The notes under the pieces: generated by a model
The model's database searches: none
What the model was told of the DNA's origin: nothing
What the model saw: the letters and a program-made list of their open reading frames with translations, nothing else
Shown here: in pieces, positions 20,214 through 62,494 of the stretch
Numbering within the stretch: the stretch's first letter is position 1
Layout: every line of letters begins with the position of its first letter
Made by a program: the position numbers and the translations under genes
Source: Eukaryota sp. GEM-RC1
Lineage: Eukaryota
Assembly: GCA_040285855.1 (NCBI GenBank)
Contig: JAUFOQ010000005.1
Coordinates: 1,488,001-1,552,000, forward strand
DNA length: 64,000 nt
Direction: 5' to 3'

Positions 20214-21840
20214 TAAGTCGTTCAACTAAAATTATTGGACAAACAGATTGGTGTTTTCTGCTTTCATGGCTGTTCTTCAGACGCTGAGGAGAAGTTTGAT
20301 TTCTCTTGATGATTATTACTGAGAGAAGACTCCGGACTTCTTCTGTGTAGGCAAAAGAGATTTTGAGGACATTGCTTTTTGAAAGACTAGTTTTCTGATT
20401 GTTGTATTATCTTTTTAGCAAGACCTAGTAAAATTCTATACACGATACTAGCAGTATGTTGTACTTTACAAATTCAACAACTAAACGCTCGTTCAATTTC
20501 CCAAAATTATTCATCTTTTAGTTTTAAGAAACAGACATCAATATTCGTTAGAATTGTAGCACCACAACCTTGATATTTCATCTTCTTCATTGTGCCTAAC
20601 CGCGCTTTTTTTCATGAGACGGTTCACTCAAAGTCCACTCAAAACGTCTGTAACTATATGATCCGTATTCTTCACAGAACACCTGTTGATATAACATTGG
20701 TCAAGTTCCTGGTTGTTTTATAAAATTGTTATGTAGTTTGCTTCTTTTTTCAAATACTTGACTTTTTGGGCTGAATGTAACACCATGTTGGTAAATTTTA
20801 CAGATAGAGCGTTGACATTCCCCGGCTCGGTTGTCGAATCATAATTGATTGATTTTCTGCATTCAAAAGGAAAGTAATAGTTGGACACAAATGCCACCAA
20901 AGAAGGATTCGTTTCGACACTTCTTGTATGTTCTCTAAAAAATAACAGTCAATTTTAATAATCCACAAAACATCTAACGTGGTTTCTTTGCTGTAGGTAC
21001 ACAGAATGAAGACGAAAATGCATCGATCATAAAAATTCAAACATTCATAAAACACCACCAAACATAAGATTTGAAGACGAAAACTATGAAAAAGGATCTA
21101 AACTTGTATACAATTGACATGGTACCGGCATATGGCTCGAACTGTCACTGGATTTCTTATAAGTCTAATCACCATCATCTTGGGCTGCATCATACTTGGA
21201 TGGAATCCTTCGATAAAGCTTAGATAATGCTAAATGTATGACTGTGTTATTGACACACTAGTAAACACACGTCCAAATTTAATTTTACAATACTGCTACA
21301 ACTACCAATAACAACCGTTATAACGTTCTATTGTTGGTGACGTGTCAATTTATGTGAGAGTCATATGTTCTATATTAACAAATAGTAAAAGTGAATTGTA
21401 TCTTATCATAATGTGAACTATACTCACAACAAAATCTCTATAAATATGACTGTACAATCAACAAAGAATAAGAATAAGATCAAGTCAGCTGAATTATCCA
21501 TATTTTACACATTTCATCAAGTCCAATCGATGCTTTCACAGCATTCTTTGACCAAAAGGCTGATACACCATAAAAATTGACATCATCATTTTATAATTTT
21601 TTGACGAGATTTGCTCAAAGGTGCGTTGCTGAAACTTCTGTTGTGACAGAAATCACAACTTTCTCTAGTGCAAAGTTTCGTTCTACGGTTTTTAAATCAG
21701 AAATAAAGGTAACTCAACTTTAGAAATAACTGTATTGTAGACTTTCATCACCCTTTTGGTTTTATAAAGAAAAGAACCTGATTCTATATAATACTAATGA
21801 AAACTATTTAAGGCTCATTGGGTCCAATTACTCCCACTAT

Positions 21841-23515
21841 TTAAAGTCTAAGATTAACTTTCAACACCTCTGCCAAATCTCTAGTACCTTCATCTCCAAT
21901 AGAGTTGTTATACAGATTAACACTTGTAACTGAATCATTCACTTTCAACGCCTCTGCTAAAGCTCTGGCACCTTCAGCTCCAATGGAGTTGGATCTCAGA
22001 TCAATACTGGTAACAGAATCATTCACTTTCAACGCCTCTGCTAAAGCTCTGGCACCGTCAGCTCCAATGGAATTTCCACCCAGATCAATACTCGTAACTG
22101 AAACATTAACTTTCAAGGCCTCAGCCAAAGCTCTGGCACCTTCATCTCCAATAGAGTTTCTACTTAGATCAACACTTGTAACTGAAACATTAACTTTCAA
22201 GGCCTCAGCCAAAGCTCTGGCACCTTCATCTCCAATAGAGTTTCCACGTAGAACAATTCTGGTAACTGCAGCATTTACTTTCAACGCCTCTGCCAAAGCT
22301 CTGGCACCTTCATCTCCAATAGAGTTGTCATACAGATCAACATTGGTAACTGAAACATTAACTTTCAACGCCTCTGCCAAAGCTCTGGCACCTTCAGCTC
22401 CAATAGAGTTGTGACTAAGATTAACACTAGTAACTGAAGCATTCACTTTCAACGCCTCTGCCAAAGCTCTGGCACCTTCATCTTCAATAGAGTTGTAACT
22501 CAGATTAACACTTGTTACTGAAGCATTCACTTTCAATGCATCTGCCAAAACTCTGGCACCGTTAGCTCCAATAGAGTTGGAATTTAGATCAATACTCGTA
22601 ACTGAATCATTCACTTTCAACGCCTCTGCTAAAGCTCTGGCACCGTCAGCTCCAATAGAGGTAAAACACAGATTAAAACTTGAAACTGAAGCATTCAGTT
22701 TCAACGCCTCTGCTAAAGCTCTGGCACCGTCAGCTCCAATAGAGTTTCCACCCAGATCAATACTTGTAACTGAAGCATTCAGTTTCAACGCCTCTGCTAA
22801 AGCTCTGGCACCGTTAGCTCCAATATAGTTTCCACCCAGATCAATACTTGTAACTGAAGCATTCACTTTCAACGCATCTGCCAAAGCTCTAGCACCTTTC
22901 GGTCCAATAGAGTTGGAATTTAGATTAACACTTGTAACTGTAGTATTGGTTTTCAACGCTTCAATCAATAACATAGAAATAGAGGCGTTTCGTCTCGCCA
23001 CTTTTACTTCTAGCTGCTTAAGACGTGGAAATAAAGAAGAAGAATTGTTTAGAAATTCTAAATTAGAAGGTTCCCTTAGTTCGATTCTCAATCCTGTAAT
23101 TATACCAGAATAATTAAGAAATTTCTCAATTTCAAAGGTTCCGGGAATGTACAAGAAAACAGATTGTAGATCTGCTCCAAAAGAAAGAAGCAAGTGAAAT
23201 TAGTTTGGGAAGGTGTTCAAGATCAGTATGAAAGATGTGTAATTGAAAATAGACTTTAACTGCTTGGAATGAAGAATCAAGGAAGTGATTACTTACATAA
23301 CCAACTTGTCCAAAGAATGCAGGTAATGATGTTTTCATAGCAGTGAGTTGAGGATTAGTTCGATCATCAATATTTTCGAGAGTAAGGTTGAGAAGACGTC
23401 TCAGCAAGTGGAGATGGATCAGAATCAACAAAGTCTGCTGCACATGGACACGTTTAGAGGGAGGATGTGTGGATGAAGACAATACCAACACAGGTTCAGA
23501 ATGAGGTGTGACCAT
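21841..23515 (-). CDS. RNI-like LRR protein, family copy 3 (13 repeats; one 1-nt insertion near 23180)
   Basis: Same N-terminal domain and 28-aa repeats; split by an extra A in CAAAAGAAAG vs CAAAGAAAG of paralogs (error or pseudogene). Confidence 0.85.
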
Positions 23516-23826
23516 TCTAGATTGATGGATCAAGAAATGAGAACTTTCGTTCTCTCAAACTTACTATATGTCTATCATCCATAACTAGACTTGACAATAT
23601 CTGGTAGAATCCATTTCGCTTGCACTTCCATAATAGAGTTCCACCACTTCATTTCTTAAAATCGCTTCCCTTTTACCTTTCTCGTTTACTTCACGATTAA
23701 ACCACTTTTGTTTTTCCTTCACATTACCATTGGAGTAAGTACTACTTTTGATTACCAACAAACTACGCACTACTTAAGAGATTTAATGATTCGCATCTGT
23801 TACACCTTTAACTCTGATAAGTACTC

Positions 23827-29782: not shown

Positions 29783-30639
29783 CAAATTTACCTACAGGGA
29801 CATTTACAATTCAGGTCCTCCTCAGGCAGATTAGTTTAGATACTTTAGTTAGCGTCTGTTAGTTATTAACTTCTGCAAATGCATTTATTTAACTGATTGA
29901 TCATCAACCCCGTTTTTTCTCAGGCATACTAGTAGTTAGAAATGCGTACGGCACGTGCGATAAACTACTGTGTACGTGTGGAATATGTGAGGTTTCTTTG
30001 TTCCGTATTCCAACGTATTCTGCTTATTAATACTCCTTTCTGTTAACCAGCACCTATTTTATATTATAAAATACTATTGATGAAACAAAAACTACAACTC
30101 TTCATTAAGGTAGAGATTCACAACAATAATATCTTCTGGATCATCTTCAAGAATGTCCTGGTCCTCATCTTGAGGTTCAGCAATACAATTGATCTTACAA
30201 TGTTTCAATTCAATTGAATTTTGATCAATTTCCCAGGGGATCACAAGACCTTTTTCAGCCATTTTATTCATAGTTGGGAAATACACCACATTCGAAAATA
30301 AAATACACTAAAATCACAAAAAAACACTAAAATCACAAAAATACACAACCATACAATTTTGTAACATAATAATATTTTGTTATCTTCATTTTTTGAAATA
30401 TTATGATTACCGCTTAATATCACCAATCAATGTCAATTTCGAGGGTTGATTAGTTATTCTGATTACTAAACCTTGCATAATTCAAGGCATATGACCACTT
30501 GAATAGTCAAAATGAACGTTCTGGAAAAAATACCAAAACAAACTTAATTCGAATTTAAAAAATACCAAAAAATACCAAAAAATACAAATGATACAAAAAG
30601 TGTATTTTCCAACTACGATTTTATTTATCTGGTGTTTCA

Positions 30640-38100: not shown

Positions 38101-41016
38101 CACTGTATTTCGTCCTCCTTAAAGGCTTAACCCTGAAGAACAGCGTATAGCCGAAATTTTTTTTTGAATGAACTTATACGACAGGATGGACCGTACCATC
38201 GACTGGTAAGTTCAGTAATCCCATTATGTTGGTTGTGTACAAAGACCACATAAGGAAGCCTCGTTTAACTGGTGACTTCGGTGTATCAGACGGGATTAAA
38301 GCTAATACCAGACCGGTGAAACCAAACGTACTTCGGTTCTGTGATATTCTAGAGTTCCTTTCCAAAGCAAATTGCATCGGAACACTCGATCTTCCTAAAG
38401 CATTCTGGCAGCTAAAGGTAGCTGAGGAAGATGTCGAGAAGACCAGTGTATCTATAATTGGAATGTCAATTAGCTTCAAACGAGCATGTTTTGGTTTGAA
38501 AAACGTACCAACAATTTTCCAAAACATCATGATGGAAATATTCGATGTGGAAGGTGTATTCATTTATATAGACGATATAATTGTAGTAGTTGACACTTTC
38601 GAACAGTTTATTTCAAGAATAAATCTAGTACTGGAACGAGCAGAACGTTTTAGAGTACGGATTGGATTACGGAAGTGTAGGTTCACCACTTCTAAACTTC
38701 TTAATAAGATTCTGGACAGACATTTTTGCAACAAAACCCGTAGCATTAATGAGAACAGAGTTTCGGCTTTGATCGAGCTTCCAGCTCCTTCATCTTTACA
38801 AGAGGAAGATTCTTCCATAGAAGATTCTTTGAACAAAAGACCATGATGCTTTACTCGCACAATTGAAGTCTGAGATCCTAAATCACATGGCATTGAACTT
38901 ACTTGATACTGATAAGAACATTATCATGTCAACTGATACATCCAACATTGTTGTTGGTGGTGTGATCTGGCAGGAAGAAAATCCCCCAGCTCCACCAGGT
39001 ACTCCGTTAGATGATCGTAGAGTTAGACCTGTATCTTTTTGTAGCCGTTTACTCAATGAAAGTCAACAGAATTGGCCAGCTATCCAGAAAGAGCTGTTTA
39101 CCATTCTCTTGATTCTGACCGAATCTAGTTTAGAAGGTTTCCTGTTAAGTAGGCACTTGACGATCTTCACTGATCATAGGAACCTTGCTTATCTAATGTC
39201 TACTCCAGAGAAGAATCGCATGGAAACGATGGATTCCCATTTTATCTGAATTTGATTTTGAGATAGAGCATGTAGCTGGTACAATCAATCAATGGGCTGA
39301 CATGTTAACACGTGTTATTGACCGACGCCCAGTTGAAACAATCAAATCTTTGACGATCTCAAATCTTTCCATCAAAAATGACTTAACCCTTTCCCAAGAA
39401 GGCTTACTCATTGATGACGCAAATTATTTTTGAGATGCTTCCACGTAACACCAACGTGCTGGCTATCAAGCGTCTTCGTGACCTCTCATACGACAATAAA
39501 ATCCCTTTATTTGATTCTTGGCTATCAACCATCAGGTTGGAACAAAGCAAGATCAACTGTTCACTGGATCGACCTTGTGTACAAAGAGTAATGTACACAT
39601 AAACTCCACGAACAAGAGATTGATTCCATCTAGCTTGATAAAGAAGGTTCTTTACATGCTGCATGGATTAGTCCAGTCAGGACATCCAAGCAAGAAACAA
39701 AGTTTGGACACACTGTGCAATAGTGGTTACTTTTGGTCAAGTATGAAAGCTGACATGATAAAACATGTTCAGTAATGCCCCCGTGTCAGAAAACGGCACC
39801 TGTTCTTGAAAAGATTATTGAATCGACGGATTCTCTATGGGCTGATAGACCTTTTGCTAGACTAATCGTCGATACAATTGGTTCACTTCCAAAAGATCAG
39901 AGTGGAAACCAATACCTCTTGGTGTTTGTAGTTTCTTTCACCAGATACACCATTCTGTGCCCCTTCGAAGAAATATCAATAGTAAAGAAATAGCATATTG
40001 TCTTGTGTGAGATGTGATTGTTATTTTCGGAATACTGTTGTGTATCATAGTGATAATGGTACTCAGTTTGCCAATGCTATTTTCGAGGCAGTTTGTAACC
40101 TACTGGCGATTGAAGAAAGTCGTTCGATTCCTCATTTCTCCCAGAGTAATGGGCTGGTGGAATGACGTCACAGAGACGTTCTGCAAAGCCTACGTCGTCT
40201 CCTTGTGGACTTCAATGTTTGAGACAATTGGTCAACGTACATTCCAACTGTATAGTTGCAAATCAACGCTAGGCATACTCCCTACGAACTGATGTTTGGT
40301 AGCGACTTAAGTCCTGGTGCAGATCCTAGTAGTTTACTAGATGCTGTTGAGAAATCAACAAAGAATGTTCCGTATATTGACGACATTAAAATGAAACTAG
40401 AACGACTAACGAAAATGAGAGAAGAGGCAGAGGTTCGACAGACGTCAATCAAGCCCAAGAAGAAATCTGAATCTAGTCAATCATTTAAGATTGGTGATTT
40501 TGTGGTAAAGATCGCCAAAACTAGTAAGCTCCATGGTAATTACTTTGGACCTTTTCTAGTTGTATCAGTTGATTCGAAATCTTCTGTGTCACTAAAGAAT
40601 CTGATCACTGGTCATGTTAGTAAGACTAGCATTCATCAATGTAAGATCTTTCAATCAGATCTACCTGCTGATCATGATCTCCACAGAACAGTTGCTTCTG
40701 GGGATTCTGTAGAACACATCGTGATTAAGATCCTAGACAGGTTCGATACATTCGATGTTCAACATTGTACTGTCCTTTGGTTTGGTGGTGATACTTCATC
40801 AGTTCCCATCAAAGACATCAAACACACCAAGGTGTATAGTGAATTTGTAATTTAGAAAATGTAGATTTATTTCATAGTAATAGTAGAATCAAGACTAGTA
40901 ACAAAAAGCCTAAGCTTAAACGTACCTCAAGTAGTAAGAGTAGTCCTAAGTCACCCTCCAAAGTTAAGACACCTGTGGCTAAGAGAACAAGGAGCTCGAA
41001 AGAAGAGAAGAGGTAA

Positions 41017-42940: not shown

Positions 42941-43878
42941 CAATTGGTTTAATTAGTGTGGACCACACTAATTTTCAGTGCTTTTTGAGCTCTTAGAAAT
43001 TAGAATTAGTGTAGACCACACTAATTATAATCCACACTAATTATAATTTAATAAAAATAGTGTGGACCACACTAATTTTCTGAAAAAAGATTTAGTGTGG
43101 ATTGAAATATTTTTCAAAAAATGTTATTATACTTGTAATTGGTGTTGTGTCATTCTTGGAACAACACAAAACTATAGAAGGTCTTGCAACAATGTTTGTA
43201 ATATACTACCAATGTGAAAGTTCTATTTCACTATTACAATAAATCGTTAATTGCGTTATTGTATTGCTCACGATACTTTTTAATAATTTCTAGAAGCTCT
43301 GATTTCAACTGTTCAATTTCCCAACGACCAGTTGTGTTCAAGCTCAAACCACATACTGTATATATATTTCACATTGTTTTGCGAACATGTGAATTACCAT
43401 TATAATCAAATTTATATCTGCATTGACACATTGTTCGACTAATTCAAGAAAGAATCACTTTCCAGGATTTGAAATCTTTCCCGATCTAGAAAAGTTGTGA
43501 TTGTTAATCAATTCTTTTTCCTGGTATTGCATTTCTTTAACCATTTTGCCTTGATTTTTGAAATGACAAAAGAATCTGCGGGTTGTAGTAAGAGAGTGGT
43601 GTTGGGAGGCAGATTGGACTCCATTGAATCGATTTTTTGTCGATCAAAAGCAGTCAAGACCTCAGAGCCTAGTACCATATTAATGAATGTGGAAAAGATA
43701 AGCGTTAATTGGTTCAGTACTGGTGATTTCGTATAGATTTGGTCTGATTTTCACATATTATCGATAGAGTAATAAAATCCCCACTAATTAAGTCAAAAAT
43801 TAACACTATAAAAAACCAAGAAAATAAGAATTACTGTGGACCACACTAATTCTTTATCCACACTAAATACACCAATTG
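42941..43878. mobile_element. TIR element with palindromic subterminal repeats, inserted in an older repeat
   Basis: Termini CAATTGGT / ACCAATTG; several copies of TAGTGTGGACCACACTA or variants at both ends; splits the repeat homologous to 8980-9460. Confidence 0.7.
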
Positions 43879-44886: not shown

Positions 44887-47294
44887 TTAAACTCTATGAT
44901 TAACTTTTAACACCTCTGCCAAAGCTCTGGCACCTTCATCTCCAATAGAGTTATACTCCAGATCAATACTTGTTACTGAAGCATTCACTTTCAACGCCTC
45001 TGCCAAAGCTCTGGCACCTTCATCTCCAATAGAGTTGTATCTCAGATCAATACTTGTAACTGAAGTATTAACTTTCAACGCCTCTGCCAAAGCTCTGGCA
45101 CCTTCATCTCCAATAGAGTTGTATCTCAGATCAATACTTGTAACTGAAGTATTAACTTTCAACGCCTCTGCCAAAGCTCTGGCACCTTCATCTCCAATAG
45201 AGTTGTATCTCAGATCAATACTTGTAACTGAAGTATTAACTTTCAACGCCTCTGCCAAAGCTCTAGCACCTTCAGCTCCAATGTGGTTGTGCCTCAGATC
45301 CATACTTGTAACTGAAGCATTAACTTTTAATGCCTCTGCCAAAGCTCTGGCACCTTCAGCTCCAATTGAGTTGCGACTTAGATCAACACTAGTAACTGAA
45401 GCATTAACTTTCAACGCCTCTGCCAAAGCTCTGGCACCTTCATCTTCAATAGAGTTGTAACTCAGATTAACACTTGTTACTGAAGCATTCACTTTCAATG
45501 CATCTACCAAAGCTTCGGCACCTTCAGCTCCAATGGAGTTATCCTCCAGATTAACACTTGTAACTGAAGCATTCACTTTCAACGCCTCTGCCAAAGCTCT
45601 GGCACCTTCAGCTCCAATGGAGTTATCCTCCAGATTAACACTTGTAACTGAAGCATTCACTTTCAACGCCTCTGCCAAAGCTCTGGCACCTTCATCTCCA
45701 ATAGAGTTTTTCCACAGATAAATACTTGTAACTGAAACATTAACTTTTAACGCATCTGCCAAAGCTCTGGCACCTTCATCTCCAATAGAGTTTTCACTTA
45801 GATGAATACTTGTAACTGAAGCATTCACTTTCAACGCCTCTGCCAAAGCTCTGGCACCTTCAGATCCAATAGAGTTATACTCCAGATCAATACTTGTTAC
45901 TGAAGCATTCACTTTCAATGCATCTGCCAAAGCTCTGGCACCTTCAGATCCAATAGAGTTATACTCCAGATCAATACTTGTTACTGAAGCATTCACTTTC
46001 AATGCATCTGCCAAAGCTCTGGCACCTTCAGCTCCAATAGAGTTTCCACCCAGAATAATACTTGTAACTGAAGAATTCACTTTCAATGCATCTGCCAAAG
46101 CTCTGGCACCTTCATCTCCAATAGAGTTGTCAACTATAACAATACTTGTAAGTGAAACATTAATTTTCAACGCCTCTGCCAAAGATCTGGCACCTTCAGC
46201 TCCAAGATAGTTTTCACCTAAATTAACAGTTATAACTGAAGTATTAACTTTCAACGCCTCTGCCAAAGCTCTGGCACCTTCATCTCCAATAGAGTTATGA
46301 ACCAGATTAACACTTGTAACAGAAGCATTAACTTTCAACGCCTCTGCCAAAGCTCTGACACCTTCAGATCCAATAGAGTTATACTCCAGATCAATACTTG
46401 TTACTGAAGCATTCACTTTCAATGCATCTGCCAAAGCTCTGGCACCTTCATCTCCAATAGAGTTATGAACCAGATTAACACTGGTAACAGAAGCATTAAC
46501 TTTCAACGCCTCTGCCAAAGCTCTGGCACCTTCATCTCCAATAGAGTTGTCATCTATAACAATACTTGTAAGTGAAACATTAATTTTCAACGCCTCTGCC
46601 AAAGCCCTAGCACCTTCAGCTCCAATAGAGTTGTTACGTAGATCAATACTTGTAACTGAAGTATTGGTTTTCAACGCTTCAATCAATAACATAAAAACAG
46701 AGGCGTGTTCGGATTTTACTCCTACTTCTAGCTGCTTCAGACGTGGAAATAAAGAAGAAGAATTGTTTAGAAATTCCAAATCAGAGGGTTCCCTTAGTTC
46801 GATTCTCAATCCTGTAATTATACCAGAATAATTAAGAAATTTCTCAATTTCTAAGGTAACATCAGCGTGCAAGAAAACAGATTGTAGATCTGCTCCAAAG
46901 AAAGACGCAAGTGAAATTAGTTTGGGAATGTGTTCAAGAACAGTATGAAAGATGTGTAATTGAAAATAGACTTTAACTGCTTGGAATGAAGAATCAAGGA
47001 AGTGATTACTTACATAACCAACTTGTCCAAAGAATATAGGTAACGCTGTTTTCAAACCAGTGAGTTGAGGATTAGTTCGACCCTGAACAGTTTCGAGAGC
47101 ATGGTTACGAAGACGTCTAAGCAAGTGAAAATGGATGAGAATCAACAAAGTCTGCTGAACATGGACACGTTTAAAGGGAGGATGTGTGGATGAAGACAAT
47201 ACCGACAGTTCGTCACCGTTAGACATCACAGAGGAGAGACTGGAAGAGGATGAACGACTCTTTTCAACAAAGGTTCAGGAAGAGGTGTGAGCAT
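44887..47294 (-). CDS. RNI-like LRR protein, family copy 4 (21 repeats)
   Basis: 780-aa open frame; homologous start MLTPLP at 47294 is separated by a 1-nt deletion; alternative ATG at 47226. Confidence 0.9.
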
Positions 47295-49377: not shown

Positions 49378-50805
49378 CTACCTTTGCCTGTACAACTCAA
49401 CAGCATCAATAGTCTCCCACGGAGCCCTCTCAGGTAGAATAACTGTCATTTTCTCATAGTACATCTCTACTGACGGTGGATTCCTATAACCAGGATCATT
49501 AAGACAAATGCTGAAACACTTTGGTTTTTCTATCCTCTTAAAAAGAGTCTCAACTGACTTACGTTGACCCAAATGATCAAACACAAACTCATCCTGATAG
49601 CCTAAGGTGAAATAAACAAAGATACATACAATAATGATACATTGCATTATACAAGGGAATCTTATAGTCAGTCCGAATACTCTTCTGTACCCAGTAGTGG
49701 TTAGCTAAGTGAACGAAATGAGGAAGTCCATCAGGAGGTCGGAAAGGTGTTGACACGATCTTCTGGAAAGTCTCAGCAAATTCAGTAGCTGCTTCTTGCA
49801 TAACTTTCCTATTAAGAGGATACCAAGTGTGTGCCATTGCATGCCAGCACTTTAGCTTGGGTTCAGGTCTACCAAATGTCTTTGACAATATCCCACTACT
49901 TTGGAGTAATCCTTTAATGAACTGGTTGTCTCCTGGGGGTTGTATAACACGTTGGTGTTCGATCTTTGGTAAGTTGTGGAAAGAAAACATACATGGATTA
50001 ATCTTCGTCCTGTTTGTAAATCATATAGTAGAGAAGTAGGTAGAGGTTTGACCAAGGCCATATCATCGTTAAAATAGAGAAAGTTCTGTGATAAACCTGG
50101 TATTCTCCAGAGATTTGCTTCTATAGCATAAGACGAGAATACTGGTAGAACAGAAACATCTTCAAATATATCTTCATGGTAAACTATTGTAATGTAAGGA
50201 TTTCCTGGATCCAACCAAGAAGGAATCTGAGTGGGACCAGAAACTACTAGAAAAACGTGTCGTAAGTCTGGGAGATTCTTGTACACTCCACGTAAAGAAA
50301 AGACGATCTCGCCAATATCACTAAATTCTGAAGCATGTTTATCTGAACTGCTAGGATTATCAGGATAACGTTGAGGTGGGGTCTGGGAATTAATAGTTGC
50401 AGACTCTTTTGTGTGACGTTGTTCTTGCCAAACAGGGTCACCACCATTAACATAGGTAATAACTGCATCAATTCCCCTTTTATTAAAGGCTTTCTTTCCA
50501 GGAAGTAGAAAAGTTGACATGAAGTTTTCACGAGAATTTGAGAACTCGGTCTTATATTGGCTGTGTGACTGGAGTGGATCCATTGTATCACGTGATACTG
50601 ATGGGGTTGGGTGACGTGATGCATAAGTAGGGTAAGCAGTGGTTTTGACAGAATCCGCAGGAAGTATAAGTGAAACCGAAAAGGATTCCGAGAAAAGGAA
50701 AAGACAAGTGAAAAGCGAGACAAAAAGCAGAAGTCCAAGTAGTATAGAGAGACGACGATGATTGATAGGTTTTCTGAAGGAACGATGGTAATGTAGAAGT
50801 AACAT
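49378..50805 (-). CDS. Stealth-family (GNPTAB-like) hexose-1-phosphate transferase, type II membrane protein, two introns
   Basis: CR1 IDAVITYVNGGDPVW, CR2 IEANLWRIPGLSQNFLYFNDD, CR3 AHTWYPL, CR4 ICLND; introns 49964-49992 and 49602-49629 restore the frame; start approximate. Confidence 0.9.
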
Positions 50806-51577
50806 GGTATGTGGACTGTTCAACAGAGCAGAAAGACAGTGAAGAATGAAGATAGAGTGGTTCTAGTCCATAACGGTAGAACGCACTTTGAAGAAAAACA
50901 TGAATGTTGTCCTAATCATACTGCTGTAGTACGTTTTCGTACTGACTATAAATTCAATAAGTCCGACACTGTCCACAAAACAGAGGCAAAACAAATACTC
51001 TAGGTCTCAAGCAATCACTGTTGTTTGCCAGAAATAGGCGTATTCAACATCGGTTTGGATTACAACATGAAGTCCTTTAACGAGATTCAATGCGTAACAA
51101 ACAAATTCATGCGTTGCATGAACAACAAGAAGAAAGCTCGAATATTATCTTAAGTTGAAACAATTATTGACAATTTCAATTAATTGGAAACAATAACAAT
51201 TGAAGATCCCCTATAAAAGATTAAAGAATTGGTATGATGTTGGGTAATTATGTGCAATACTGTCTGTAACAAAACATTTGATGTGGGTAATGTATGACAA
51301 TGATGACGCACATCCAGTAACTCTGTGATAATAAAACGTTATCTGAATACTATCTCATAAGTTCTTTGCTATCTGGTACAGCACTACTGAACACTACGAT
51401 CAAGACAACTCGCGGGATGGATCCACCATCCACACTAACAGAACTGAAGATTTGAGTATTCAGTGAAACACGATGTTTAAAAAAAAAGACGTCAAAATGC
51501 GGTTGTTTACACTAGGATGGATATCCCAAAACCCATCCATTCAGAATTAAATTGAGTGACATGAAAGGACAAGAAAG

Positions 51578-52221
51578 ATGCAGTTTCAAAAATTGTTCAA
51601 TTTTCTCCCTTTCCAAACCTCCTCCAAAAGCATGTCTGTCCAAATTCCTCAAAATCAATCTCAACGCTTCGAAATCGCCATCCACAACCATCTTGTAACT
51701 GGTAGTTTGAGCTATCCTTTGACAGAGATGGTTAATCGTCGACTATGGGATGACATTGTGTCAGAAATAAACCAACGTCTACCCATGAAAAACTACTAGT
51801 ATGTACCATTCATCCCTTCTCTCACCACAGTCACTGGCTTATCTTCATTGGATACATTCTGTGGATGTTTATCGCGTGGAACTTCATACCAATGTCTGGT
51901 GGATTGATTTTACTCGATTCCGTGCTATTCATTGGTGCTATCGTGGGCTTCATTATTACCTTTCGAAGTAGAAGGGATCTTGGATACGCTGCTGTCAGAC
52001 TTTATATCAGAAGTCAAGCTAACGCTGCATTGGAACAGAACAAGCTCTTTTTGAGATTAGAACGGCAACCAAAACGTGACTTTCTGATTATGGAATACGT
52101 GCCCAATGCCACTCCAGCATTAATCCAACAACAGAATGTGAATGTACAATATGTAGAGGCTCAAATACCTGGCCAAACTGCTTACCCAGTATTAAATTCC
52201 GCTCCCGTCCAAGAGGTTTAA
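51578..52221 (+). CDS. Hypothetical two-TM membrane protein with one 32-nt intron (51799-51830)
   Basis: Removing GTATGT...CACAG joins the two ORFs in frame (KNYYHWLIFIGYILWMFI). Confidence 0.75.
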
Positions 52222-53073
52222 TAGAAGGTGAGGAGATTGACGACTGTAAAATAATAGTAAGCAAACCCATGGTGTCACTTGTGACACTTAAACGGGGAGT
52301 GTGACACCGTTTTTTTTTGCTTAATAAAATCCAACACTTCATTTTTATCACCTGTTCAGACTTCGTCAAGGAAACTTGAGTAATTCCACACAAAACACCT
52401 GTATGAGTGTGACCATCAAGTGGTGTCTTGAATTTTTGAAACGTTGATCGGACTTTTTTCTACCTCACATCAAGTATAGTTGTAAACTACTTGATGTATC
52501 TGATTTTGTTGAGATCAATATGGAAATCTCTGACTGTTGGATTACAGGCATCAGTAGACACAGTATATATTTTGAACATACTTTCAATGATTTTACAAAG
52601 TAATTTGCAATTTAGAGACAACCATTTGGCTTTTACAATTAATTAACGGATACAACACAAAACGTCTAACGCCAACACACGGGTAATGATATACACAGCG
52701 TGTGGCTGTGTGTTGCGAACCCTGGATAATATACTACACTATAGAAAAATGAATGTATTTACAAGACAAGTGGAAGAAAACCAATGGGAAAAAGAGGAAC
52801 AATGAAAAGGCAATGTAACAGAAACAAAAAAATGTCTATAAAAAGAATTATGTAGTTTAAGCATAGTAAAAAAGAAAAGAACCGTCATAAGAACATCATG
52901 CAATATACAACTAGAATACAGACTAATCAAGTGTGTATCAATTTGGGTCTGTGCGTGTGTTTGTTGCCCATAACATATAAAACAGCATTGGAATTTAATA
53001 AATTAAGTAATAGTAAATTTTTTAACCACAAAAGGTGCATTCACATCTGGTTGAAATTTCTCACCCTCAAAAT

Positions 53074-55092
53074 CTAATTGAAAAGGAGAGGAAAGTAAGG
53101 AATCAAAAGACCGTTCCGATCAGGAATAAATCGCTTTTGATTGAGTTTTCTTTCTGGAATTGGTTCGTCATCACTAGGAGAAAATTCAAATATTACTAAA
53201 TTTTCACTAGAAATTTGAAGACTCGGTGGTTGATGACATAAACACGAACATTTGGGACAAACAAAAGGTCGTAGATAAGCACAAATCTTTTCAAAAGGTA
53301 AAGCAATAGAACACTGGCGTTTCTTAACCAACGGATCCTCAATCCACGCAAAATCATCAATTTTTAAAATATATTTGTTCCACCACGACACTGGAGGCTC
53401 ATGCAACACGTCATCATCCTTCAAAGTCAACAGACAACCAGAGAACTCATCAGACCACTTTGTAATCAAATTAAACACCAACTGTTTAGAGTGATCCAGG
53501 AATTGATTGGACACGTAACGTTGCAGATGCACCGTGACCTTCCTTCCTAACTTCTTGTTCACAACGTCACTTGCAATCAGCCCAACCTTGTCTAATACCA
53601 AGGAGCCAGAGTATTGATAGGAGAGGACATCGCTAGTAGTGTTAGTTAGGGGAGATGATGATCTTACCTAAAGGAGATGAGTGGCAAATGGTTGAGAAAT
53701 CAGAATATCGTGAGAAATGGTTCATGTTACGAAGCATTTCCTGCACGATTACCATATTTAAAAAGGTTTGGAAAGCGGCCGTTCGATCGGTTGAATCGAC
53801 ACAATTGATCCGGACGATCCCTTTCTGTTGTTGAATTACTTTAAATAGAATTCTAGAACTAGATTGGGGGATCAACTGACAATGAAAGAACTTTGTACTA
53901 GACAGAAGGTCTAATGCAAGGAAAGAAAGGCCGTCTTCGAACTCAGTCAAATCATGATCATGTGAGTTAAACTCATTTCTAAAATCAAAATTACAATATT
54001 TAATCATGTCACCATCATGACGTGATTTGATTGACTCAGGAATACACTTTGAATTGATAAACTCAATAGCATCTTGATAATCCCTACTAAGAATGCTTTC
54101 GCCAGTCTTCTTCTTACTCAACAAATCAACTACAAATATAGGAGCATTGTACTTGAAGAACAAATCAGAGAAATGTAAACGTGTAGCAGAACAGTAGGGA
54201 TCACGTCGAGTGAGGGTCAGTTTAGGTTTGATTTTGAACCCCCACCTTCTTGTCTCCAACATACAGGAACACTGCCACGAACACAGACATGAGAAGAGAC
54301 TGAACAAGACGTGGATACGATAACTTCTGATTCAATGAAGTTGGCGGCGTTGCCATTCATTGATACTCCTCTTTTAAGGTACCTTGGACCAGCGTATAAC
54401 CTGCTTCTCCTATTAACAAGAGTCAAAGTGAAGGCAGAAGAGGAGTGGGAGGGAAGAATGGTTCGTTCTGAGACATGGCCGTAGATGAAGTTGGTGCGGA
54501 AGGAGGTGGGGATAGTCGAATGCATAGAAGTGGAGTTCCAGACGAAGTCAGATCGGGGCTCATCGTGTGGAGATTGACGTTGTGGGTAGCACCCTTGGGA
54601 GGACCTTTTAGCAGAGGATATACAGAGATGTTGGAGGGTGTGGGAGAGGTCTAGGGAAGGGCAGAAGTAAAGGGCTTGCCAGTCAAAGAGTTCTAAGAGA
54701 GCACGATAGCTTGCTTCTGTTGCAGAGAGTGGTTCTTGTGAAAGGGAGAAGGAGATGACGTCAGCAACTTGGTAGATGGGTCGATTGAGGACAGAAGCGA
54801 CACGAGTAACAGATGATATGAGGATCATGTGATAACAGTCATGGAGTTTGAGAAAACCGAACAGGGCTTTGGCTTTGAGGATAAGCTTTGGAGTTTGGTT
54901 TGATGAAGAGAGAAGATGTTGAAGAGCTGAGTCTGTATATAACGTTTCATCTTGAGTGATGTTGAGATTTGCAGGACGAGTCCGCGAGACCCTCATCATG
55001 CGATACAGTTGAGATGAGGTTAATCCTACAAGAATTAGCTCAGACGGTGTTTCATATAGGAGAACTTCGTCAAAGCATTCACAAAGTGCCAT
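53074..55092 (-). CDS. FIG4: SAC-domain phosphoinositide phosphatase, FIG4/Sac3-like
   Basis: RRSRLYAGPRYLKRG, ANFIESE, RGSVP, DPY..RLHF..L, RINCVDSTDRT, DVLSYQYSGS; two small indels. Confidence 0.85.
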
Positions 55093-56143
55093 GCTGAAGA
55101 CTTAAGTGTCAGACAAATAGTCTTGGCTGAACAGACGGACAAGACAGAATTAGGTCTCAGTCAGGCAAGACTTTTGTTCTGATTAAATTGCTGATGTGTA
55201 TATGTAGAGTAGATGTATAAACTACAATGTATTAAACCAATCAAGTCCATATCTACTCTAGAGTCTAGACTACGTGATACTGCATTTTCTCTTCGAACGT
55301 TTCCAAACGATAATAGAGGATATGTGATTCCGGATTTTCCACTTTCTTAATTAGGTATGTACATGTACCTTTGAATATTGAAAAATACACAACATTTCTA
55401 GTTCTAAAAACGAACAACCAAACAAGCAGACATATATATATATTTATGAATATTTTATGATAATGGTGTGATTATGTTCACAGTAGGAATATGTTTAAAA
55501 CCCTTGGAATTGCAAAGGATAATTGAAATGAACCCCAAAATGACAAGACATATTACAAGAAAAAAATAACATGTGTGCAAGGTCAGGTATAGGTGAAAAA
55601 CAACATTTTATAAGTACACGTGTTCGTGCCATTTTTTTTAATAATCCATGATAACTAAATGTTGAGACCAAATTACACTGTATTTGAGTACTTCAGTCTA
55701 TTACTATAAACTGAAATATCAAGTACAACACAAGAAAACATGGAATATACGTTTTCAAAACTTTGATTGGAGTACAAAGATGGCCATTAGATTCTCGGAA
55801 AAATGAGTCCTTATAGTTTAAATTGGGTAGCAGAATACATGTGGATTCGGGAACTGAATTACTGTTGAAATAAAAAAACGGGCTTTTTGATCAGTCATTG
55901 AAATAAATGCATTTGCAGAAGTTAATAACTAACAGCTATATGTCAACTAAATACTTTTCAAAATTTTGTTCCGACTAATGTCCAATTTAATTTGTAAATT
56001 ATGTCAATGTTGGGTGTATAAGAACTCTATGTCTAGTGCTCCATGAATCTACATAGTTGTTAATGACTGTTCTATTGCAGTACATGTATATAAGATTTTT
56101 TCCCCAAAAGTTTGCTTGAATTAAAGATTTAATAATATACAAC

Positions 56144-57303
56144 TTAAATATCAGGATTAGACCACGTACAACTCGGCTGAAACTGAAACTCAATATTTCC
56201 CCCAAGCAGACCATCCACAAATCGACCAATCAAAACATGACCCCCAGTCAAAAACACCTTCCCTTTACCATGCCTCCTTCCATCTTTGAATTCTCCCTCA
56301 TATCTCTCCCCATTAGCAGCAGAGAACACCCCAAAGCCTTCCCTCTTATCATTCCTCCACTCCCCTTCATACTTCTCTCCAGAAGAATAATCTAAGGAAC
56401 CATAACCATTAGCTCTGTCATCCTGCCATTCTCCCTTGTAAACGTCACCATTAGAGTAGTGAAGTTCCCCTTGACCGTGTTTCTTAGCGCTAACAAACTC
56501 ACCTACATATCTGTCTCCACCTCCAAATATCAGTTCACCATTACCATGAGCAACGTCGTTAATCCATGAGCCCGTGTATTTCTCCCCATTGACATAATAC
56601 AAAACACCTTGTCCTTGCTTCAGATCGTTCTCGAATTGTCCTTCGTATCTATGATTAAAGACTAGTTATTCTAACAAACCGGTTACCATTGGGGAAAACA
56701 AAGGTACCTTTCCCAGACATTGTTCCCTTTTCCCACATTCCTTCGTAAACACCACCATCAGCATAATGATAGACACCAAACCCATGAAAAACTCCGTCAA
56801 CAAAATCTCCAGAAAACTTTTCAATCACGGATCCATCTTCATCCACATAAGTCACGGTTCCTTTTCCATTACGACGATCATTGAGCCACTCGCCGTCGTA
56901 AGAGTCACCGTTAGCATAAGTGTAGACACCTTTGCCATTCATCTGGCCTCTTGAGAAAGATCCTTCGTATTTGTCACCATCAGCAAAGAAGAGAATACCA
57001 GATCCATGCAGAACGCCGAATTCAAACTCACCTTCATATCTGTTACCATTGGCATAGTGGGCTACGCCAATGCCGTTAATCTTATCATCGGTCCATTGGC
57101 CTTCGTAACGACCGCCGTCTGCATAGAAATAGGTTCCAGTGCCGTGTCGTTTACCGTGAACCCAGGATCCACTGTAGCGTTCACCGTTGGGATAGAGAAG
57201 CTCGCCATTGCCATGCATTTGGCCATTAGAGATGCTACCAGAGTACTGAAGGAGAGAAGATTGGTGAGATAATCCAGTTGAAGACTGAGTCGCTAGAGAC
57301 ATA
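56144..57303 (-). CDS. MORN-repeat protein with one 31-nt intron (56649-56679)
   Basis: Tandem YEGEWxxDxxxGxG repeats; removing GTTTGT...CATAG gives NGNRYEGQF; start taken at MSLATQ. Confidence 0.9.
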
Positions 57304-57489
57304 GAAAAAGAAGTTGGATGTGAAGAAGATCTGATAAGTAGAAAATGACTCTCGAATTGTGTGTTTACTGTGAATTTCATAACAACTGCTTACTACTAGT
57401 AGTACTCCCAATTATGAAATTCACTCCTGTTTTCACAGGTTGTAAGAGACATATAGCGTCATCTGACAAAGACAATCATGATCTTCATC

Positions 57490-57720
57490 AACGGGTTACA
57501 TCACTTAGATAGACCGACTGCTTACACAGCTTACACTGCTTACACAGAACAAAGTTTCTTAGACTTAATCTATCTAAATGGATCTGACAAACATATCTAC
57601 CGGGATAGATACTTCCCCAGATCGGTCTCAAAGTGGTTTTGTTTATCATTTCTACCTATCTCTCCATTAGACTCTCCTCGACATTACCTCAGGACAGACA
57701 TATCTTCCAGGCCACAACTC
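57490..57720 (-). ncRNA. Candidate Fanzor omegaRNA scaffold
   Basis: Directly 3' of the Fanzor ORF: hairpin 57581-57623 and a 14-bp stem (57502-57515 with 57567-57580) fully paired only on the minus strand through G·U pairs; boundaries are estimates. Confidence 0.6.
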
Positions 57721-59607
57721 TGCTTTCTTCCTAGTCTGAATATTTTTAGCAGCGGAAACATCTCTGTCATATACTTGATGGCAGTTGGCACAGACTCTCA
57801 TTTGCCACCATCTGGTTGCTTCGTTTAGTGACATACAGCAGCTTGACAGTTTGCTAGTGTTGAATTCACTGGTGGGAAAGTGCTTTACTCCTTTTTGGTG
57901 ATTCAGCCATTTCCGAAAGCATCGAGCTGATCCATATCTTTTAACTTTCCTGAAATGGGAAGGAAAGTTTGCTGAGCCAACAGCCAGATACAGTTCCTCT
58001 GGATGACCAGAAATCTCTTGAAAAGTATTCAGAGCTTCACGAAAACGTCGTTCTCTGCGTCTTCGATTGTCGAACTTAATCGACTTCCACTTTGACCGGT
58101 TACTCTCTTTGTACACCTGTTTTCTTACCAAATTCCAGTGATTCAAATATAGGTGAATATTTTGCACGGAATATTGGTTCGGTGACATTTTGAGAGGAGA
58201 AGGGTTTGTTCGAAACTGGCGGCCTGTAGGACACTTGATCAGTCCGTGGTTTTCTTCATTCAAATAGTAACCACAAAGACGTGACTGACCAAGATCCACA
58301 CCCACTAATGGGCCTTCAGGAATAATCTCCTGGGCAGTTGGAGGGCGACGGCGAGGCTGCTTCTTCGATCCTTTTAAATTGATGGATTTGATGCAGTTGG
58401 CTTTAGGATCTTGCTGCATCTCAAGTTTTGTCCGCCTTTTTTTCTTTTTTGGCGGCTCTCCTTCTTTCTCCAAGGTTGGCTCAGTCCTGTGAAAGGTGAT
58501 CAGAAGCTCATTTCCGTTGGTTTTCAGTGTTAGCTTCTTGTAATTTTTTTTATAATTTTTGTTCCACATTCGAAACTTTGAATGTGGACAGGTTTTAAAA
58601 ATTCGTTTTAAAAATTCGTTGGAAATGAACAATCTTCCAGATCTTGTACCATTCGGAAATTTGGTAGAATTTCTGAAGATGTTTGGAGGTACATCCAACA
58701 GTTTTGACCCTTTGTGAGAGGCTAGGGGGATCAGTCGGAGCCGTCTCCAACAATGGGAAAAATCACTTAAATATGTTTCTAAGAATTGTGCAATTGATAG
58801 GTTAAAGATAAACAATTCACGAATTGCTTTAGGAGAAACGTTCATGTGGTCTGCAGAAGATAGAAGTCCTTCCGAGACAGGAAAACGATCGAAAAGATGG
58901 AAAATAAAATAGACAGCGTTAAGTAAAAAGATTTTTTCAGACTGATTGTCAATGGAAACATTAACAAAAGAAGGAGCATTAAATGGAAGATTATAAAAGA
59001 GATAAAGAAGATGCGAAGAAAATTGACGAGGTGTCTCAATGACCCGACAATGGGCATATAGAAAATTTTTAATCCAAGCTCTGGATATTTTGGGCAGAGA
59101 AGACTTAACGTTAGCTGCCAACTGACGAGAACGGCAAGTAAACCACTGCGAAAGATTAGGGCTATTCACCACAGAAAAGGTCTGTGTGGCTAGCCAGGAG
59201 TTCAAGAAATTCTGAAGGAGTAACCCATAAGTGAGTATATCAGAATTCCACTCAGAAATTAAAAAGTTTTGGTGTTCCAAAGTAAAAGGAGGAACAAAAG
59301 AAGCAGGGGACTCTGGAAGAAAACCATCATAGAAAACATTCAACAAAAGCCTTTGTCCTTTCGAAGTTTGAGGAGCAGGAAAGCTACTTTTGTTGATGAC
59401 GGTCATAAAGAGATACCAGACATCCTGTTCCGCAATAGCTCTGGCCGCTATAGGGAAAGTGACAAGGAAAGAATGAAGAAGCAAAGAAGCTTCATGGCAG
59501 ACTTCGGTGACATGAGGAATGTCAGACCGAATCTGGTGAACTGCTGAAGGTATAAGCAGCGAGTTCAGAGCACACGACCGAGTGAAACACTTACGTGGCT
59601 GTGCCAT
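57667..59607 (-). CDS. Fanzor (eukaryotic TnpB-like RNA-guided RuvC endonuclease), Fanzor1-like
   Basis: RuvC-I VGVDLG, AVGSANF at the canonical RuvC-II site, shifted Glu in TSEFNTSK, Zn finger SSCC...CANC, RuvC-III DRDVSAAKNI; uninterrupted ORF. Confidence 0.9.
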   Translation of the reverse strand: MAQPRKCFTRSCALNSLLIPSAVHQIRSDIPHVTEVCHEASLLLHSFLVTFPIAARAIAEQDVWYLFMTVINKSSFPAPQTSKGQRLLLNVFYDGFLPESPASFVPPFTLEHQNFLISEWNSDILTYGLLLQNFLNSWLATQTFSVVNSPNLSQWFTCRSRQLAANVKSSLPKISRAWIKNFLYAHCRVIETPRQFSSHLLYLFYNLPFNAPSFVNVSIDNQSEKIFLLNAVYFIFHLFDRFPVSEGLLSSADHMNVSPKAIRELFIFNLSIAQFLETYLSDFSHCWRRLRLIPLASHKGSKLLDVPPNIFRNSTKFPNGTRSGRLFISNEFLKRIFKTCPHSKFRMWNKNYKKNYKKLTLKTNGNELLITFHRTEPTLEKEGEPPKKKKRRTKLEMQQDPKANCIKSINLKGSKKQPRRRPPTAQEIIPEGPLVGVDLGQSRLCGYYLNEENHGLIKCPTGRQFRTNPSPLKMSPNQYSVQNIHLYLNHWNLVRKQVYKESNRSKWKSIKFDNRRRRERRFREALNTFQEISGHPEELYLAVGSANFPSHFRKVKRYGSARCFRKWLNHQKGVKHFPTSEFNTSKLSSCCMSLNEATRWWQMRVCANCHQVYDRDVSAAKNIQTRKKAELWPGRYVCPEVMSRRV

Positions 59608-61029
59608 GGTGTCGAAGTTTCCGGTCAACCATAATCACTTTCCTTTCATCATATTGAGTTTCCCACCCCCGTTATTGTCACACCTTTATAATTTGAAGCC
59701 TTGTCTTACACGGTTATTTGCTAGTCCTAGGTCCTCTTATCCTATGTATCTGCAATGCTCTGCTCTTAGTCCTACATCACTTGCTCTCGGTATCCTATTG
59801 CCATCTTCCCTTCTAGATTCCTTCCATACACCCACCACTTCCTGCTAGTCATCCCACTTCTTGTTTCTTAGCATCTCCCTTACAGTTTCTTTAGCTCTGC
59901 TTCCCCTTGTGATGTTCAAGTCTTTGCCTAGGGCTCTCCAATGAGGAAATCACTTACTAATGAGAAGAAATTCTATCCAAACTTCGCTTCTCCTTCAACA
60001 ACTAATCCATCCAGACGAAGAAGTCCCTTTGGATTGAATCTCATAAGATTCAACTTAAGAATTCGTTCTTTGCTCAATCATCAAGTTGACAGCGTTGTGT
60101 ATAGTATATGTTCGCTTTGATTCTATGTTAATCAATTTGTCTAGAGTGTTATTAATAATGAGCTCATTATGTATTTTTTCGATCGAATATTACAACGTTT
60201 TAATACACTGTATTTTTGAAAAACTTCTTATTATGTATAGATGCTATCATGTTCATCTTAATCCCTTAAAGAATGGGTATTCATGTTCACACGTTCTGAC
60301 AGTTTTTCAACAACTACAAAAAATAAGACAAATTGAAGAGAATCCCTCAATCCAAACAACTATATGTAACATCCTTTTCGTTAACCAAAAGAGTTGATAC
60401 CGTTTCTACCTGAACGAAGGATATGTGTGATGAGTTCCGCTCAGAGTAGCCAAGTGCCTGTTGAGGAAGTTGTTATGTCTATGGATCTGGCTGACATTGA
60501 ATCAGAAGAGGCGGATACCTTTCTGAAACTGGTCAGAGAGTCGAAGTGTCTATTTTTGTGATAGGAAATCACAGCAACCGTATAGCGAAATCTACGAACA
60601 AGTGTATATAAAGAAGTATGATACCTCAAAGAATTCAAATCAAACCAATCGAGTTTTCCATGACAGCAATTGCACTAGGAGGTTGAGGAAGGTTACCGTA
60701 AGGCATAACAAGATCGAAACAGATGACACAAGAGGAGAAAGAATGACAGTGAACAACGTTTTAGGAGTCTGGAGCGAAAATGGTGTTTATCACTATACCG
60801 TCTACAGTAGTATTTCATTGTTTTGATATCTGTTTGTATCTTTTTCGTCCTAAAACCATTTTTTTAAAAAATGTATATATTAAACAATATGTTTTATGGC
60901 CTCTTAGTGCCAAGTTTCTTTCAAAAACGCTGCCGAGATTGAGGTTCTTATTTTAATCGTACTGTTCAAGCCTAGATAGGAAGTAGATGAGTCCATTGTG
61001 GAGATAGATGTATCTGGGTAGAAAGGAAT

Positions 61030-61484
61030 TGACAATATTATCTGCTGCAACTTTAGTACTGGTATAATGTAGAAAAACCGGGTTTATGATCAATCAGTGA
61101 AAAATTGCTATCATAGTATAATCTACTCTTCATCTATTCCATATCCATCTTCCAGTAGTAAGCTTTGCTCGACTGAACAATCTTTCGAACAACTAAAACC
61201 TAATGTCAGTTTGTTTCATAACAGTACGAACAACTGCTTGTATCATATCTTATATAATTGAGACAACTTTGTACGAGTTGTTTGAAGAAAATTCGATAAT
61301 TGCAAATGAAAACACAACAATTTGGCATGAACAATTATTGTCACAATATTGCAATATATTGCAATATTATTGCATATTGCGATTTGAGACAATAAATAAA
61401 TTGTTGATCCAGCTGCTGACAATAAATAAATAAATAACATTTATTGCAATAAATTAAATTAAAATATATTTTTTAACATCCCTG
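61030..61484 (-). mobile_element. Truncated, internally deleted copy of the 7330-8140 hAT element
   Basis: Reverse complement of ~7330-7540 and ~7850-8005; one TIR (…TTTTTTAACATCCCTG) retained. Confidence 0.88.
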
Positions 61485-62494
61485 GTGTAATTCTCCCAAA
61501 TTTATCACATGACAATAAGAACACTGATTGATCAAATGCACTTCCAGTCACGATTTTAAAAGACTGGTAGTGAACTTCTTCGATAGAAAACAATGTTGTG
61601 GAGAGATTTGGTGTACACTCTTGTTGTTGTGATGGTTGTGGTGTATTCGTTGTTATTACTGTAGTTGTTGTCTTTGCATTGGCAAGTTCATTTCACAATT
61701 TGAATCTCCTAATCTTCAATACATTTGTTACTGTTTAATTACAACGATCTGATTTTTGCTGAAAACGCATCATGTATTCTATCTTTCTTACGTTGACTTA
61801 CTTACTTCTGCTTATTGTCCCCCAAAACAAATCATGATGACACTGTAACAAAAATTTCATAAATGGAGTTCTGAGGTTGTCCTGATATTACTATTATGAC
61901 TTGATTCACACAGCTTACATTCCGTAGCTCAAGATAGTCCACACTTTCCTACTTTCCAAATCTGCATAGTCTCCAAATCATATTACCTTTACAAGCTGTG
62001 ATTTAAAAATGGAGAAATTCTATTGGATACTGTCTCTTCTACTATTCCACATGAAAAGTAACACATTGAGCTTCATATTGAACTCATTCCAACAATCACC
62101 TGTTGATCCGTTCAGAGTAGGGTTGAGTAAACAACATTTGTATTTAAATATTTGAAATAAAAGCAGTGTATATATTTATTTTCGACAGCGGACAAACTGT
62201 TATATATATTTTTCAGAAGTGAAAAGCAATTAATTATTTTTCCCTTTTTCTCCTTCTATGAGACCTAAACTGCTCAAGATGCTAACAGTCTTCACTTTGC
62301 CGCCATTGAGACCAATCATGAAACTCCCGAGGAGATCCAATTAAAATTAAATAATCCAAGATAAAGGTTCAAACACTATATAGATAATTGATGGGTACAA
62401 GCACTATGAGGAAAATGATTCCATTACAATGAACTCAGCTGATATGTAAAAACAAGACATGTCATTTTCGAAAAGTAAAATCGTCAATAAATAG

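Follow-up and report, generated by a model that had tools for sequence, protein, structure and literature searches.

Fanzor1 nucleases work with an omegaRNA encoded 3' of the protein, take the guide from the flank of their element, and read a target-adjacent motif (TAM) with the REC and WED regions (PMC10432273). For SpuFz1 the same source describes an omegaRNA of two stems, the second ending at the guide. Nucleases of obligate mobile element-guided activity (OMEGA) cut empty sites and thereby restore their element, which for Fanzors is a proposal (PMC13565253). The Fanzor/TnpB superfamily is recognised by the signature D-X(125-275)-[TS][TS]-xx-C4 finger-X(5-50)-RD (PMC3627910), and Fanzors by DPG ('near exclusively') together with a rearranged Glu, with TDG as the WED motif of Fanzor1 (PMC10711439). 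Here we present P0001, an open reading frame (ORF) of this lineage in a stretch of 64,000 nucleotides (the window, numbered from its first letter) of Eukaryota sp. GEM-RC1, contig JAUFOQ010000005.1. Skoliomonas sp. GEM-RC and its relatives are soda-lake metamonads (10.1101/2023.05.03.539051), and the host is likely to be adapted to salt and alkali. Overall, P0001 is a real and intact gene of the Fanzor1 lineage, ordinary in kind, and new in its host group and its branch. Judging from sequence, it is probably an intact copy of a multi-copy gene in a metamonad genome of the Skoliomonas type. It likely encodes the RNA-guided DNA endonuclease of a mobile element that is non-autonomous, with homing as its proposed mode of action.

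As far as the sources describe SpuFz1/Spu-1 (PMC10432273, PDB 8gkh; PMC3627910), P0001 is like it in size (646 vs 638 aa), in the WED-REC-WED-RuvC-TNB order, in the rearranged Glu, in being an intronless single ORF with many near-identical copies and no transposase, and in the two-stem RNA after the stop, which here is a prediction. P0001 is unlike it in having DLG instead of DP(G/N), an SxCC finger, no terminal inverted repeat (TIR) that we could find, a predicted scaffold of ~125 nt instead of 75 nt, a sequence too divergent for a direct match, and two WED alleles within one family.

An intact gene of the Fanzor1 lineage

P0001 is uninterrupted over 646 residues on the minus strand, from the ATG at 59607 to the TAA at 57667 with zero internal stops, as the initial annotation of the window had it. 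The D/E/D triad and the CC..CxxC finger named there are found as D438/E581/D616 and as C590, C591, C606 and C609, in the motifs GVDLG (436-440), SEFNTSK (580-586), SSCC (588-591), CANC (606-609) and DRD (614-616), and the Fanzor-type RuvC layout stands as well, with E581 aligned to E541 of SpuFz1. The superfamily signature is present as D438, T584-S585, cysteines 590/591/606/609 and R615-D616, with a variant cysteine spacing. Cas12f1-like_TNB, at residues 572-623, passes its cut-off (E 3.1e-6) and is the sole Pfam domain. A basic linker (Table 1) carries two likely nuclear localisation signals, which we take to be such from the general consensus of these signals.

The homology is followed with four profiles: A3 (14 Skoliomonas and 6 other rows), A9 (Skoliomonas only), A6 (12 viral or environmental Fanzor1 rows) and the narrow A2. 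HHalign joins A9 to A6 with a probability of 99.7% over 527 columns, covering residues 9-645 of P0001, and A6 in turn matches SpuFz1, PpFz1 and GtFz1 at E values of 1e-74, 2e-65 and 1e-57. With A3, SpuFz1 is the best of 23 PDB matches (E 7.8e-14), in an alignment that begins in the second WED part and reaches the C-terminus; it has a chain offset of 394, places D383 on D438 and E541 on E581, reproduces Y345 and matches the C-terminal RD. By these profiles the N-terminus of ~400 residues, which the initial annotation could match to nothing, is a much-diverged but standard Fanzor1 WED-REC-WED arrangement; the enlarged REC and the whole-length Fanzor1 domain order are read from sequence profiles alone. 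Giant-virus Fanzor1 clusters (ESM Atlas; IMG/VR loci) resemble P0001 in a feature score of 0.98 and in whole-length profile alignment, and differ in having ~14-20% identity and separate tree branches.

The tree agrees with this placement. In a quick IQ-TREE analysis of the last 400 residues of 42 rows, which do not include the named reference Fanzor1 proteins, all eight Skoliomonas rows form one clade (stem 1.07; 99% by the Shimodaira-Hasegawa-like approximate likelihood ratio test). A split with a support of 100 places this clade with Fanzor1 and sets it apart from TnpB and Fanzor2-like rows; a quick 72-row tree agrees on the Skoliomonas clade. This is a long-branched Fanzor1 clade, all named members of which come from three Skoliomonas (metamonad) genomes. 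The earlier suggestion of a distinct Fanzor lineage thus holds, given the well-supported long branch; a new Fanzor class it is not, since the clade lies on the Fanzor1 side. In the literature searched, which leaves other surveys' supplements, Repbase and subscription journals outside, we found no Fanzor in metamonads or Skoliomonas, and the word 'metamonad' is absent from PMC10530073; to that extent the clade extends Fanzors to metamonads, as intronless proteins of 590-650 aa.

The motif departures raise the question of a separate origin. DLG is present in every site-covering GEM-RC1 and TZLM1-RC copy bar one with DLC, while DPG is kept in the sister TZLM3-RCL families P0034/P0039, and DPN is found in the more distant P0053/P0056/P0057 and in SpuFz1. 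A third Fanzor class, arising from a bacterial TnpB that eukaryotes captured separately, would account for DLG and for the compact finger, the direct PDB and NCBIfam matches of which are TnpB/Cas12. It is nevertheless the least probable of the alternatives and scarcely to be entertained, with DPG in the sister families and DPN like that of SpuFz1 in the further ones, with the TxG motif, the REC region and the tree all Fanzor1-like, and with NCBIfam TnpB scores of 20-24 bits against cut-offs of 100-425. As the sisters have DPG and the distant families DPN, DLG is a later change in the GEM-RC1/TZLM1-RC branch and no mark of a separate bacterial origin, so that P0001 is classed as a derived Fanzor1 variant on the ground of its descent, its motifs not being typical. 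The finger CC is kept in at least 90% of the A9 rows, and the xCC variant also occurs in the Fanzor1 rows P0060-P0062. Two named classes were considered and rejected: Fanzor2/IS607 (no adjoining serine recombinase ORF, IS607_TnpB at 23.6 bits vs 350, the tree position elsewhere), and prokaryotic IS200/IS605 TnpB (~400 aa, with the canonical Glu ~50 aa before the finger), from which P0001 differs by its 646 aa, its rearranged Glu and its NCBIfam scores far below cut-off.

A family of copies with two types of WED block

Word-indexed protein searches with P0001 return three and five proteins, all from Eukaryota sp. GEM-RC1 or TZLM1-RC, and a further homologue search returns three. Named proteins with 95-99% identity accord with GEM-RC1, or a very near relative of it, as the most likely host. 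The 90% cluster of P0001 has 11 members, mostly fragments, its 10 named members lying on six contigs, and the TZLM1-RC cluster has 82 (15 inspected); copies outside the window are known here as predicted proteins, not as DNA. A full HMMER search gives 36 matches; among the 17 clusters inspected, the strong ones are Skoliomonas families including several of TZLM3-RCL, and the weakest (E 1e-5 to 5e-4) are unnamed Fanzor1-like proteins. Clusters of 11 and 82 members, counted as proteins, accord with coding by a multi-copy mobile element, and the near-identical, mostly fragmentary copies argue for a mobile family and not for a lone domesticated gene. Of the earlier wording, 'recently active or host-retained', we thus keep a recently mobile family and drop host retention, given the mostly broken copies in the 11-member cluster. 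Domestication of a single gene, as a regulator or defence nuclease, might be suggested by the intact frame amid broken elements and by its position just upstream of a MORN-repeat host gene; against the near-identical copies spread over contigs, most of them broken, and the type-B fragment P0028 joined to a leucine-rich repeat (LRR) gene model, it is very improbable.

Peptide patterns confirmed none of 294 viral and none of 318 metagenome candidates as relatives, and a phage collection gave four weak TnpB matches (E 0.4-0.6). Stand-alone DPN Fanzor families are seen in the TZLM3-RCL clusters of P0053 and P0056 and in P0057 of GEM-RC1. In the P0053 and P0056 clusters, 592 aa is the length of 7 of 10 members and 604-605 aa that of 4 of 14, and on this account both families look younger and more intact. 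One TZLM1-RC copy, P0102, is split by ~400 residues without a Pfam match, which from their motifs are presumably the end of a non-LTR (long terminal repeat) retrotransposon.

The GEM-RC1-type copies are 97-99% identical apart from residues 313-373, a block with the WED strand LIPL on one side and, on the other, the strand that follows TNG. P0001 and P0009 share 38 of 61 residues inside the block and 574 of 585 elsewhere. Counted over columns covered by at least two copies per type, the types A (P0001, P0005, P0006, P0008) and B (P0009, P0003, P0010, P0013, P0028) have fixed differences in 24 of the 63 columns of the block and in none of the 530 outside it; three fragments do not cover the block. 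The distance to TZLM1-RC is the same for A (32/61) and B (31/61), which makes the A/B split old. The remainder of the protein is young, and a cassette brought in by recombination would leave just such a pattern. Most likely, then, the block came in when this family recombined with an older relative, as far as the sequence pattern can tell. The TxG site reads TNG in type A and SNG in type B; it is TDG and SDG in P0056 and P0039, and TNG in other Fanzor1 rows.

In the same interval of SpuFz1, R291 contacts the TAM and K312, R315 and R317 contact RNA stem 2 (PMC10432273). The non-conservative changes and a two-residue indel between A and B concentrate at 313-335, opposite R291, and the later changes are mostly of the K/R type. 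A variable WED segment has been proposed to evolve toward different TAMs (PMC11423790), where GtFz1 and PpFz1, like our family, vary between conserved strands; there the variation lies across distant species, here it lies in proteins 98% identical elsewhere. By this analogy the chances are about even that the block changes the TAM and gives one family two target specificities, and we go no higher because the register is approximate at low identity and the TAM-reading REC residues are identical. So far, three very distant structures are the basis for assigning TAM choice in Fanzor1 to the variable WED segment (PMC11423790), and types A and B form a natural paired experiment with one block exchanged in the same protein. 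Different TAMs, if true, would mean that a eukaryotic OMEGA nuclease is retargeted in modular fashion, and would provide editors with a module that can be grafted. A comparable pattern, a near-identical scaffold with a divergent motif-reading module, is known from Cas9 orthologues with exchanged protospacer-adjacent-motif-interacting domains, which belong to prokaryotic CRISPR immunity and have an unrelated fold. Within the type A block there is also a 13-bp tandem duplication (58592-58620), at which copy P0005 is gapped; the 130-nt window that includes it has a folding z of -4.13.

Predicted omegaRNA, candidate element ends and proposed homing

Just beyond the stop codon, where a guide RNA would be expected, a strongly folding two-stem RNA is predicted, a candidate omegaRNA. 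Among 54 minus-strand windows of 130 nt, the lowest z value, -4.88, falls at 57630-57501; the refined stretch 57625-57495 reaches z -5.8, with none of 300 shuffles as stable. An independent hint comes from the TZLM1-RC copy P0022, which reads through its stop into FETDL, and FETDL is encoded in one frame by DNA 57632-57618; a match of this type occurs in 1 of 984 windows, precisely the expected one. On account of this match, the scaffold start seems to have been kept between species with 59% identity in the protein. An omegaRNA-shaped DNA pattern at two metagenome loci (62-64% GC, no other similarity) was judged to be chance.

No transposase ORF adjoins the Fanzor among the neighbouring ORFs of the window, in agreement with the initial annotation. 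A degraded transposase inside the element, in the stop-broken upstream frame 59608-60117, is unsupported, for that frame has no convincing Pfam or NCBIfam match. A 10-bp direct repeat flanks the gene (Table 1); in two sets of figures for 3000 random placements, repeats of this length arise 67 and 76 times (~2.5%). Taken as a target-site duplication, it would bound an element of 57507-59772 and leave a 5-nt scaffold linker vs the 6-nt one of SpuFz1. A scaffold end at 57502 is favoured, because five more pairs form with bases inside the repeat.

Several points weigh against reading P0001 as a working endonuclease of the Fanzor1 lineage. P0001, A2 and A9 match no solved Fanzor directly in PDB searches, so that the mapping onto SpuFz1 is transitive and the register of the WED block loose; A2 aligned over the RuvC part alone, and an AlphaFold2 model on a 27-row alignment reached a predicted local distance difference test value of 31. 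The RuvC-I fingerprint DPG is missing, with DLG in its place, and the CxxC...CxxC finger is not found, with Ser at the first finger Cys (SxCC...CxxC). The refined RNA window was picked after the hairpins were seen, the initial 281-nt fold having z -1.75 (14 of 200 shuffles), and Rfam gives no credible match (four matches, E 0.33-1.3). Finally, no TIR was found around the Fanzor, and just 2 of 12 GEM-RC1-type proteins are full-length (P0001, P0009), a count that gene-model errors may lower.

It may be, then, that P0001 is a recently disabled or weakened copy, its frame open as the insertion is young, and its enzyme impaired by DLG or SxCC. The 10 of 12 GEM-RC1-type proteins that are partial and the two motif departures speak for this; however, the families have multiplied with the DLG shared by their site-covering copies (the one DLC aside), D-hydrophobic-G is the normal TnpB motif (PMC10711439), and further Fanzor1 rows have the xCC finger as well, so that we find it unlikely. 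Slightly less unlikely, but still improbable, is that the carrier is moved not by a DNA transposase but by a non-LTR retrotransposon through target-primed reverse transcription, the Fanzor acting by non-restorative homing. The missing TIR, the direct repeat, the non-LTR-like fragments in the window (near 7084-8621 and 19228-20355) and the 2A-like motif before Exo1 in a sister family, a feature described for non-LTR elements (PMC3708506), all fit such a carrier. There is no poly(A) tail, however, the repeat equally fits MULE- (Mutator-like element) or hAT-type carriers or chance, and the copies include both N- and C-terminal fragments. The sister motif, moreover, ends in NPG-M, the 2A consensus being NPG-P.

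We therefore return to P0001 as the nuclease of a non-autonomous homing element, for which the following course is proposed. A transcript across the 3' end would yield the two-stem omegaRNA of ~125 nt with ~15 nt of flank as the guide, and the protein would enter the nucleus by its basic linker. A short TAM would be read by REC and WED, the guide would pair with an element-free copy of the same site, and the protein would cut it; repair by recombination would then copy the element into that site again (restorative homing). For new insertions another enzyme would have to act in trans, and the A/B block might widen the set of TAMs usable by the family.

Sister families with predicted Exo1 fusions, and the surrounding window

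The nearest outside family is represented by P0071 (1323 aa), a predicted gene model with XPG_N and XPG_I ahead of a complete Fanzor. Its nuclease is Exo1-like (human Exo1 at E 2e-41 vs FEN1 at 2e-10), with the acidic active-site motifs kept. The Exo1 part is found in four of six inspected members of a cluster of nine, three of which span the junction, all being predicted gene models, and in a second TZLM3-RCL family (P0050, P0099) the N-terminus is extended by a homologous stretch (E 2e-26). On the whole, the TZLM3-RCL Exo1-Fanzor proteins are P0071, P0069, P0066, P0067, P0050 and P0099, with Exo1 after a 2A-like motif. Their models (e.g. KAL0209630.1, 1323 aa) are like P0001 in forming its sister clade (99) and in 28% identity over 746 columns, the whole ORF; they are unlike it in the 2A-like motif and Exo1-family nuclease at the front and in keeping DPG, no Exo1 remnant or 2A-like motif being found upstream of P0001. 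The more distant families P0053 and P0056 start at the Fanzor itself. An Atlas cluster of 1312 aa (58 members, Mucoromycota, score 0.97) is a lead of similar length. A weak tblastn match of window 43445-43591 to the Exo1-Fanzor linker (49 aa, 41%, E 0.002, composition correction off) is probably chance.

In the sister lineage the fused Exo1 would resect the cut, favouring copying over end joining. A wider picture, which we offer tentatively and regard as rather doubtful, is one of modular diversification among Fanzor1 homing elements that lack a transposase and form a clade in metamonads: one family would swap a 60-residue WED cassette to switch its TAM, and a sister lineage would carry Exo1 in the same polypeptide as a natural RNA-guided cut-and-resect machine driving its own copying by homologous recombination. 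No natural Fanzor-exonuclease fusion is seen, by title or start of the abstract, among the matches listed, and Fanzor with Exo1 gave editing reviews; TnpB with XPG and transposon gave no relevant literature match, and XPG, FEN, flap and exonuclease are absent from PMC3627910 in the text consulted. The Exo1-fused sisters bear on whether Fanzor elements promote their own homing through end resection, and the value of follow-up lies mainly in them and in the natural A/B WED pair.

Table 1. Features of the Fanzor locus, in window coordinates
Feature	Position	Strand	Basis or remark
Fanzor1-type ORF P0001, intronless, 646 aa	57667..59607	-	ORF call and whole-length Fanzor1 profile match
N-terminal WED strand, REC region, start of second WED part (aa 1-312)	58672..59607	-	A9/A6 HHalign from residue 9; domain labels inferred
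Dimorphic WED block, aa 313-373, type A here, with TNG 363-365 (TDG in most Fanzor1)	58489..58671	-	fixed A/B columns; between anchors flanking SpuFz1 R291, K312, R315, R317
Basic linker, likely nuclear localisation signals PPKKKKRR 385-392, KKQPRRR 415-421	58345..58455	-	sequence
RuvC-I catalytic Asp D438 (DLG; sister families DPG)	58294..58296	-	aligned to SpuFz1 D383
Rearranged RuvC-II Glu E581	57865..57867	-	aligned to SpuFz1 E541
Zinc finger C590, C591, C606, C609 (SxCC...CxxC variant)	57781..57840	-	sequence and alignment
RuvC-III Asp D616	57760..57762	-	sequence and alignment
Predicted omegaRNA stem-loop 1	57581..57623	-	most pair probabilities >0.9
Predicted stem 2 of the omegaRNA, closed by 13-14 pairs (p ~0.97) about an interior with branches; 57502 or 57507 is the likely scaffold end	57502..57580	-	
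Candidate guide region beyond scaffold	57486..57506	-	inferred from SpuFz1 architecture
Right copy of the 10-bp direct repeat, which may be a target-site duplication	57497..57506	.	at predicted scaffold-guide junction
10-bp direct repeat, left copy; would set element 57507-59772	59773..59782	.	suggestive
Imperfect hairpins and GC step 42% -> 31%, alternative left boundary	59960..60070	.	nearest 130-nt window z -1.63

Every other mobile-element ORF in the window is broken, as had been remarked before: besides the non-LTR-like fragments there are a MULE in pieces (three short frames, 2926-3930) and Ty3-type reverse transcriptase/RNaseH/integrase fragments at 17023-18987 and 38172-40855. The flanking genes are ordinary eukaryotic ones by Pfam (MORN, SacI, Stealth); on the minus strand, 49378-57380 holds a Stealth-family protein, a SacI-domain phosphatase and a MORN-repeat protein, and the predicted RNA of the Fanzor ends ~200 nt upstream of the likely MORN start. 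An LRR gene is duplicated over 2.7 kb (1-2703 and 4424-7126, 99.4% identical) with the broken MULE transposase between the copies, and related LRR genes lie at 21841-23554 and 44887-47274. In addition, short non-coding elements are repeated (61028-61430 vs 7357-8012; 29856-29918 vs 55873-55935), and a 61-nt imperfect inverted repeat pairs 61412-61472 with 62129-62189; these are likely the ends of other non-autonomous transposons.

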